Position numbers and translations under genes: made by a program. A stretch of 64,000 nucleotides of DNA from Escherichia coli O127:H6 str. E2348/69 (GTDB lineage: Bacteria > Pseudomonadota > Gammaproteobacteria > Enterobacterales > Enterobacteriaceae). Shown here piece after piece: positions 1 to 1,734 of the stretch; position 1 is the stretch's first letter, and each line of letters begins with the position of its first letter. The stretch lies in the NCBI RefSeq assembly GCF_000026545.1, contig NC_011601.1, one strand, 5' to 3'. Under the pieces are notes generated by a model. The model was given only the letters and a program-made list of their open reading frames with translations. It was not told the DNA's origin and made no database searches.

Positions 1-236
<236 letters not shown>

Positions 237-901: not shown

Positions 902-1504
902 TTACTCAGATTCCCCGGCTTCGCTTACCACTTTGCTAAATATCATCTGCAGCGCGGTGAGATCCCCCATTGCCCCATTCTGATTTGCCTGATTCCAGGC
1001 CTCTTTTTCGATACCCTGCCAGCTCAGTTGATATCCGGCATGAATCGCCAGTTGCTCGAAGAAGATCCGCTGTGCCAAACCACTTCCCACACGGAAGGGA
1101 TGCAGCACGTTGATTTCACAATAGTAATGCGCCAACCGCTCGACGAATTTATCTTTCTCAAGGCTAGTCAGATACTTCTCTTCCTCCAAATCCTGCATCA
1201 GGGCATTGCCCTCTTTTTCGAGATAGGCAAAGTGGCAGAACGGCGTATCTCCCTGATAAATATCGACTTCGCGCAGTTGCCCCGCCCAGTCGAAAATATC
1301 CTGATACAACTGGCGATGAAGAGTACGCAAATGCGGTAAACCGCGCACCAGCGGACCAAGCTCAATGGTCGCAGCACGCAGCGCCGTCATTTCGTAAGCG
1401 ACCTGTTCCAGCCGCTGCTGCTGGCGGATGTTGAGCTTGTTACGCATGATATCGAGACCAGGATAAAGATACGGATCGCGCCCTTCGCCGAATTTATCGC
1501 TCAT
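902..1504 (-). CDS. fic: Fic-family protein (cell filamentation protein Fic), 200 aa
   Basis: ORF 902..1504 (-), 200 aa, begins [26 protein letters not shown]; Fic-domain His motif region present ([12 protein letters not shown]); pabA-fic-yhfG synteny. Confidence 0.93.
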
Positions 1505-1661
1505 AGTGCCTCCTCAGCGCTTCAAGACGCGCTAAAGCCTCTGCGGCAGTAAGAGTGACTAAAGGCATCTCGACGCCTTCAAGACGGCGACTGGCCTGGA
1601 AATTACGATTACGCTGAAGCTCCCAGAGACGGGACTTTTGCTTATCGGTGAGTTTCTTCAC
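1494..1661 (-). CDS. yhfG: Small Fic-associated protein YhfG (putative antitoxin-like partner of Fic), 55 aa, GTG start
   Basis: Minus-strand reading from GTG at 1659-1661 gives [55 protein letters not shown], ending TAA at 1494-1496, which overlaps the fic ATG (1502-1504). A GGAGG ribosome-binding site lies just upstream. Not in the ORF track because it is under 60 aa. Confidence 0.8.
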
Positions 1662-1734
1662 TTGATGCCTCCCTGAACGTGTCCATTTGCCACAAGTATA
1701 AGCGGCAAATCTGGGTTACGCCGGGAGAGCAGAA

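Follow-up and report, generated by a model that had tools for sequence, protein, structure and literature searches.

E. coli Fic is the founding member of the Fic family, and its pairing with the small protein YhfG was predicted in 2009 to be a toxin-antitoxin (TA) system (PMC2701414). Stanger et al. 2016 renamed yhfG ecficA and fic ecficT, described the pair as a class I Fic module and solved two complexes of it (PMC5033356). In the K-12 complex, YhfG embraces Fic as two helices, and residues S24 and E28 of YhfG contact R146 of the Fic loop (PMC5033356). Neither auto- nor target adenylylation by EcFicT was detected, even with YhfG E28G, and the structure paper suggests an extended hydrophobic pocket in Fic for a ligand that it leaves unspecified (PMC5033356).

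The homologous Fic-1/AntF pair of Pseudomonas bijieensis 2P24 (8WT0) likewise comprises a Fic protein of class I with a small DUF2559/YhfG partner encoded upstream; according to a 2026 report, Fic-1, whose loop is the canonical HPFREGNGRAQR, AMPylates GyrB and together with AntF forms a deAMPylase (PMC13327609). E. coli Fic has V139, S141 and L143. The two pairs share the numbering of S24 and E28 in the small partner and of H135 and R146 in Fic. The Fic studied here aligned with Fic-1 (8WT0_A) without gaps over residues 1-196 (E=4e-47), so catalytic residue numbers transfer directly, and a YhfG profile built from 32 sequences reached AntF (8WT0_B; E=0.0035) in an alignment that includes the motif. 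VbhA/VbhT of Bartonella schoenbuchensis (3SHG, 3ZC7) shares the fold and the mode of inhibition, the inhibitory helix coming from a separate small protein, and Fic matched VbhT at E=4.5e-33. Unlike Fic, VbhT is an active adenylyl transferase that has a C-terminal BID domain and is tied to a conjugative type IV secretion system. When YhfG alone was searched against the PDB at E up to 10, it matched nothing but itself, and neither this one sequence nor the 32-sequence profile detected VbhA there. Phd/Doc of phage P1 also has its small antitoxin upstream, and Doc belongs with Fic to the Fido superfamily; the antitoxin helix kinks where that of YhfG does, but Phd is a DNA-binding autoregulator, whereas YhfG is not known to bind DNA. 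Doc acts as a kinase on EF-Tu.

We analysed the yhfG-fic locus within a window of 64,000 nucleotides, the whole stretch of DNA under study, of which segment 880-1780 matches E. coli E2348/69 at 100% identity. Both genes lie on the minus strand. The smaller, yhfG (ficA), occupies 1494..1661 and comprises 55 codons from a GTG at 1661-1659 to a TAA at 1496-1494; fic (ecficT) occupies 902..1504 and comprises 200 codons beginning with ATG at 1504-1502. The protein encoded by fic belongs to Pfam PF02661 and to NCBIfam NF007672 (421.7 bits) and matches PDB 5JFZ_A at E=6.6e-129. The original prediction had presented the small gene as unannotated, a description that applies to the ORF track from which it was made and to nothing else: in the comparison with reference genomes that the prediction had proposed, the RefSeq record of E2348/69 places yhfG (1494-1661) and fic (902-1504) at exactly the coordinates found here, and K-12 MG1655 carries them as b3362 and b3361 with the same geometry and an 11-nt overlap. 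In some newer PGAP records the gene appears as 'ficA: FicA/YhfG family antitoxin', and the locus is carried by 5425 of 5426 complete E. coli genomes. The pair is already known, with the gene, its GTG start, its partner, the structure and the promoter all in public annotation and literature. It is highly probable, to our minds, that the full reading developed below holds jointly: that 1494-1661 on the minus strand is yhfG/ficA, the known 55-residue partner of Fic, that re-initiation at the junction would facilitate fic translation, and that the pair is TA in architecture with a Fic that is only toxin-like.

The nearest relative is the K-12 pair EcFicA/EcFicT itself (5JFF, 5JFZ; PMC5033356), the same locus with the same gene order, 11-nt overlap, GTG start, SRRLEG motif and Fic loop. 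YhfG of the window is identical to chain B of 5JFF/5JFZ ('Uncharacterized protein YhfG') at 53 of 55 residues, and the two substitutions that set it apart from K-12, E48A and S51R, are allelic only. The second of these is a change from AGC to AGG, which makes the fic Shine-Dalgarno sequence longer than in K-12. Fic departs from its K-12 counterpart at some 10 of 200 residues; at the DNA level, identity to K-12 is 94.4% for fic and 97-99% for the flanking genes.

The yhfG frame, read on the minus strand of 1440-1800, consists of the GTG and 54 further sense codons followed by TAA. Its absence from the ORF track agrees with a size cutoff, as had been proposed: the default floor of 60 aa would hide a 55-aa product, and with the floor set to 30 aa the ORF is recovered at 1494..1661 on the minus strand as 55 aa with a GTG start. 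Length alone is no evidence of coding, because 274 ORFs of 55 aa or more occur over the six frames of the 64-kb window, 167 of them of 55-99 aa. Window YhfG scored 86.3 bits against Pfam PF10832 (YhfG, DUF2559; cut-off 22.6, E=1.3e-24), covering positions 1-54 of the 54-position profile, and 126.6 bits against the equivalog model NCBIfam NF007573 (cut-off 77), and it matched PDB 5JFF_B at E=2.5e-29. With both model cut-offs passed, the inhibition motif present and a same-strand class I Fic gene directly downstream, the product falls within the FicA/YhfG family. The case for yhfG as a coding gene is one of homology and conservation, and the earlier assertion that the ORF is truly coding is borne out by the family models, the PDB match, the presence of the ORF at all 80 loci compared and a pN/pS of 0.30. 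An Rfam scan over the whole 64-kb window found no family at gathering score.

Conservation was assessed across 80 loci from different species of Enterobacteriaceae. Fic rather than YhfG served as the query, so that loci were not chosen for having the small ORF, and their Fic proteins were between 95% and 63% identical to that of the window. Every locus (80/80) has a YhfG-like ORF directly upstream of fic on the same strand, each of 168 nt counted from the aligned first codon. The original prediction had named absence of the ORF across Enterobacteriaceae as the outcome that would count against it, and on 80 of 80 loci with a pN/pS of 0.30 this outcome fails decisively. The gene begins with GTG in Escherichia, Salmonella and most Citrobacter, and in most other genera with ATG, either aligned with the GTG or one codon upstream. 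Together with a Shine-Dalgarno sequence, GGGAGG at 1668..1673 on the minus strand, which lies 6 nt upstream of the GTG and is kept as (C)AGGGAGG in nearly all 80 loci, these aligned or adjacent starts in other genera support the GTG as the probable start codon. The order ppiA-yhfG-fic-pabA is found in 78 of the 80 loci; of the remaining two, one is truncated just after fic (L072) and the other has no pabA match (L062).

Mean pairwise pN/pS was 0.30 for yhfG codons 2-47 and 0.23 for fic, with synonymous sites near saturation (pS about 0.64), and omega for close pairs of yhfG lay between 0 and 0.29. On these substitution patterns, yhfG is conserved and selected as a protein under purifying selection, and the purifying selection on fic indicates that Fic is not decaying. 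Judged by its synteny, the pair is vertically inherited within Enterobacteriaceae, and Stanger et al. likewise conclude that the locus has not spread by horizontal transfer (PMC5033356). The E. albertii type-strain assembly carries a TGA at yhfG codon 13 with fic intact. If this stop, observed in a single assembly, is real, it hints that YhfG may be dispensable in E. albertii at least.

The two genes meet in an 11-nt overlap, ATGAGCGATAA (1494..1504, minus strand), which the 3' end of yhfG (Y E R stop) shares, in a different frame, with the 5' end of fic (M S D K). Read directly, the minus strand at this junction runs CTG AGG AGG CAC TATG AGC GAT AAA. The original prediction had the yhfG stop overlapping the fic start codon; the genes do overlap, and its coordinates were exact, but the codons themselves lie 5 nt apart (1497-1501), with the fic ATG (1504-1502) 8 nt upstream of the yhfG TAA (1496-1494). 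The overlap is present in 79 of 80 loci with a nearly invariant sequence, the exception being Shimwellia (L078), which has a different junction. Upstream of the ATG by 4 nt stands the fic Shine-Dalgarno sequence GAGGAGG (1509..1515, minus strand), embedded in yhfG codons 49-51 (CTG AGG AGG). The purine run of the fic Shine-Dalgarno sequence is maintained: of the 80 yhfG sequences free of internal stops, 77 have AGG or CGG at codon 50, and 70 have AGG or GGG at codon 51. AGG is rarely used as a codon in E. coli. Its retention at codons 50-51 fits selection on the fic Shine-Dalgarno sequence at the nucleotide level.

This arrangement makes translational coupling between yhfG and fic plausible. 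The 11-nt overlap would set the fic Shine-Dalgarno sequence and ATG within the last seven yhfG codons, and a ribosome terminating at 1494-1496 would cover 1502-1515, which we infer to link termination and fic initiation physically. A ribosome ending yhfG could then re-initiate on fic, and re-initiation of this kind would tie Fic synthesis to YhfG synthesis, such that Fic would be made with its inhibitor at hand. Stop and start lie within a few nucleotides of each other on one mRNA, and this is kept in 79 of 80 loci; a masked downstream initiation site, as an obligatory form of coupling might use, was not found. The minimum-free-energy fold of the junction was no better than that of shuffled sequence (z=0.05), and RNAalifold on 29 aligned junctions gave no conserved structure (-2.5 kcal/mol, 5 pairs). 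On these single-sequence and alignment folds, we rejected structure-dependent coupling, in which RNA would hide the fic Shine-Dalgarno sequence. Because fic has a strong, unstructured Shine-Dalgarno sequence of its own, coupling is probably facilitating rather than obligatory. A literature search combining yhfG with ribosome profiling returned no papers.

The inhibition motif of YhfG, S24-R-R-L-E28-G29 of the form [S/T]xxxE[G/N], is encoded at 1575..1592 on the minus strand. It is strongly kept, with S24 in 81 of 81 sequences, E28 in 80, G29 in 75 and either G or N at position 29 in 78. From the 96%-identical K-12 proteins (5JFF/5JFZ), the window YhfG is predicted to bind Fic with E28 set against R146. 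The corresponding Fic signature, from H135 to R146 (1067..1102, minus strand), is degenerate: relative to the canonical HxFx(D/E)GNGRxxR it carries V139, S141 and L143 (E139->V, N141->S and R143->L), so that the catalytic FIC signature is not present in the window Fic, and residues on which adenylylation depends are lost from the E. coli-type protein. Residues H135, R138, G140, G142, Q145 and R146 are invariant across the 81 sequences. At position 139, 79 of the 81 have a hydrophobic residue and one an acidic residue, and position 143 is L, I, M or V in 72 and R in 9. Co-variation of Fic 143 with YhfG 25 was considered as a compensatory contact and dropped; R143 occurs in the nine most divergent lineages, which may represent one split, and in the structure paper R25 lies against T40 of Fic (PMC5033356).

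These residues bear on how far the pair can be described as TA-like. The architecture agrees with the label: the antitoxin-type gene comes first, on the same strand, with an 11-nt overlap and one promoter block, the proteins were named EcFicA/EcFicT (PMC5033356), and a TA system was predicted at this locus in 2009 (PMC2701414). The biochemistry does not agree, since the Fic motif is degenerate and no adenylylation was seen, and the distribution is the opposite of mobile and patchy, with the locus in 5425 of 5426 E. coli genomes and syntenic in 78 of 80 loci. The 'toxin-antitoxin style pair' of the original prediction therefore holds for architecture only, and 'toxin-like' is the honest term for Fic.

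Several other readings of the locus were weighed against this one. That the 55-codon ORF is an untranslated chance frame has numbers behind it, most of the 167 window ORFs of 55-99 aa being chance frames, but curated family matches, a solved structure, a fixed length in 80 of 80 loci and purifying selection refute it, and we regard it as virtually impossible. A more serious competitor holds that the overlap reflects genome compaction only, with translation of fic proceeding independently from the gene's own Shine-Dalgarno sequence and no effect of yhfG translation on Fic output. The strong AGGAGG 4 nt from the ATG speaks for this, as does a junction that shows no occluding structure in either the single sequence or the alignment. 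Set against it are the retention of the overlap and its sequence in 79 of 80 loci, despite synonymous sites saturated elsewhere (pS about 0.64), and the coverage of 1502-1515 by a ribosome at 1494-1496, which would make full independence impossible; on balance, we find compaction alone somewhat unlikely. Dual coding by itself forces part of the junction's conservation.

What the two proteins do together invites further alternatives. The pair might be an active type II TA system in which free Fic adenylylates DNA gyrase or topoisomerase IV and arrests growth, as VbhT and Fic-1 do, with YhfG as a labile antitoxin. The antitoxin-first, overlapping, operonic genes suit this proposal, as do the homology of Fic to VbhT and Fic-1 and of YhfG to AntF, and the term TA system is applied to the pair in PMC2701414 and in PMC13327609. 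Yet the Fic motif is without an acidic residue 139, N141 and R143, and the structure authors saw no auto- or target adenylylation even with YhfG E28G (PMC5033356); in Fic-1, E139A and R143A lose AMPylation (PMC13327609). The locus is moreover syntenic, near-universal and not mobile, and the E. albertii assembly combines a nonsense yhfG with an intact fic, all of which leaves an active TA system very unlikely. Slightly less improbable, and still clearly unlikely, is that Fic and YhfG are the subunits of an obligate two-subunit de-modifying enzyme, for example a deAMPylase, rather than a toxin and its antidote or a silenced AMP-transferase, with E28 and H135 catalytic. In the 2026 report, the homologous Fic-1-AntF complex is a deAMPylase for which AntF E28 and Fic-1 H135 are essential, and the Fic-1 mutants E139A and R143A retain deAMPylation but no longer AMPylate (PMC13327609). 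The residue pattern of E. coli Fic and YhfG fits that report: the E. coli-type Fic is changed at 139 and 143 (and also at N141), H135 and R146 are invariant, S24 and E28 of YhfG are kept in 81 and 80 of 81 sequences, and both genes are under purifying selection and inherited vertically together. If this were true, the conserved 11-nt overlap would serve joint production of both subunits. Against it, EcFicT/EcFicA is without any demonstrated activity, and the structure paper proposes an extended hydrophobic pocket instead (PMC5033356); no AMPylated substrate is known in E. coli for the pair; and in the accessible sections of the 2026 report the E. coli pair figures only as a listed Fic TA system, in structural comparison and in molecular replacement (PMC13327609).

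The reading that we prefer, facilitated re-initiation within a pair that is TA in architecture, places both genes behind one conserved promoter block upstream of yhfG. The spacer between ppiA and yhfG is 104 nt long and holds the block CTGCGTAAC...TTGCYGCTTATACTTGTGGCA, which is about 80-100% conserved across genera. On the basis of this conservation and of the published fic promoter fragment, we place the promoter block at 1687..1723 on the minus strand, with the -10 hexamer TATACT at 1700-1695. The hexamer is TATACT in 75 of 81 loci and TATAAT in five of the remaining six, and conservation of TTGCYGCTTATACTTGTGGCA around the -10 is at least 80-95%. Primers in the ppiA 3' end and inside yhfG were used to amplify the fragment known in the literature as 'the fic promoter', which is described as strictly sigma-38-dependent (PMC3089606); because the fragment spans the ppiA 3' end into yhfG, the classic fic promoter drives yhfG first. 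Biochemical proof of sigma-S dependence is attributed to Hiratsu 1995, as cited in PMC3141248, and arrays in EDL933 show yhfG-fic as one RpoS-dependent unit (PMC2907692). A sigma-70 consensus scan found no promoter in the ppiA-yhfG spacer, which is consistent with the sigma-38-specific promoter of the literature. CRP and sigma-54 sites near the promoter were considered by eye and set aside, their half-sites being poor and unconserved in other genera. A literature search combining yhfG, pabA and promoter returned no papers, and no binding data on operator binding or autoregulation by YhfG or the complex were found in the literature. The -10 is itself spanned by an imperfect inverted repeat, ATTTGCCGC-N8-GTGGCAAAT, which is a candidate operator.

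Across 80 Enterobacteriaceae fic loci and the window, residue 143 of Fic, which lies in the degenerate Fic signature (residues 135-146), varies together with residue 25 of the YhfG inhibition motif. Fic R143 is kept in nine of the loci (L002-L081), and YhfG position 25 is non-arginine in all nine, the motif reading SNRLEG, SSALEG, SCLLEG, SQHLEG or STALDG. Leucine, isoleucine, methionine or valine occupies Fic position 143 in the other 72 sequences, 71 of which carry YhfG R25. Divergence is greatest in the lineages that retain R143, so this pairing of aligned residues may stem from a single ancestral split.

One locus, L005 from Escherichia albertii NBRC 107761, carries a TGA at codon 13 of yhfG (2380-2382 within a gene at 2344-2511, L005 coordinates), which cuts YhfG short ahead of the inhibition motif. 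A sense codon occupies this position in the window (TGG) and in the other 79 loci, 80 sequences in all. The fic gene downstream of the L005 yhfG is intact and encodes a Fic 91% identical to that of the window. The TGA is either a tolerated natural loss of the 'antitoxin' or an assembly error.

We found that the window fic (902-1504, minus strand) is 94.4% identical to that of K-12, and that pabA, yhfG, ppiA, tsgA and nirB are 96.6-99.0% identical to their K-12 counterparts. Mismatches in fic between the window and K-12 peak in the 100-nt bin 1101-1200, which holds 13 and corresponds to Fic residues about 102-134. Among E. coli genomes, only the three E2348/69 assemblies reach at least 99% identity over 880-1780, with the next best genome at 98.2%. 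In E. coli MS 21-1 (NZ_CP146670.1, 469607-469996), the match extends over just half of the query, on the yhfG side, and is divided between two places, a half-length, split alignment suggesting that fic is interrupted in this strain. One of 5428 matching places in E. coli is located on a plasmid.

In the ppiA-yhfG spacer, an imperfect inverted repeat, ATTTGCCGC-N8-GTGGCAAAT (1684-1712, minus strand), spans the -10 element of the fic promoter, the conserved hexamer TATACT. The core of the repeat, TTGC...GCAA, is retained in other genera, and the repeat may act as an operator. Directly past the ppiA stop codon lies a G+C-rich hairpin (1735-1756) formed by GCGCGGGC, a 6-nt loop and GCCCGCGC, its stem conserved and its loop variable across genera. 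This hairpin is probably the ppiA terminator, despite the absence of a T run after the stem. An Rfam scan of both strands of the window (1-64000) returned 0 families at gathering score.

A further small gene, yrfJ (173-226, minus strand; K-12 b4820), overlaps the argD start and encodes a 17-residue protein. It is genuinely missing from the E2348/69 annotation, because YrfJ in the window is intact and identical to the K-12 b4820 product yet unlisted by RefSeq over this stretch.
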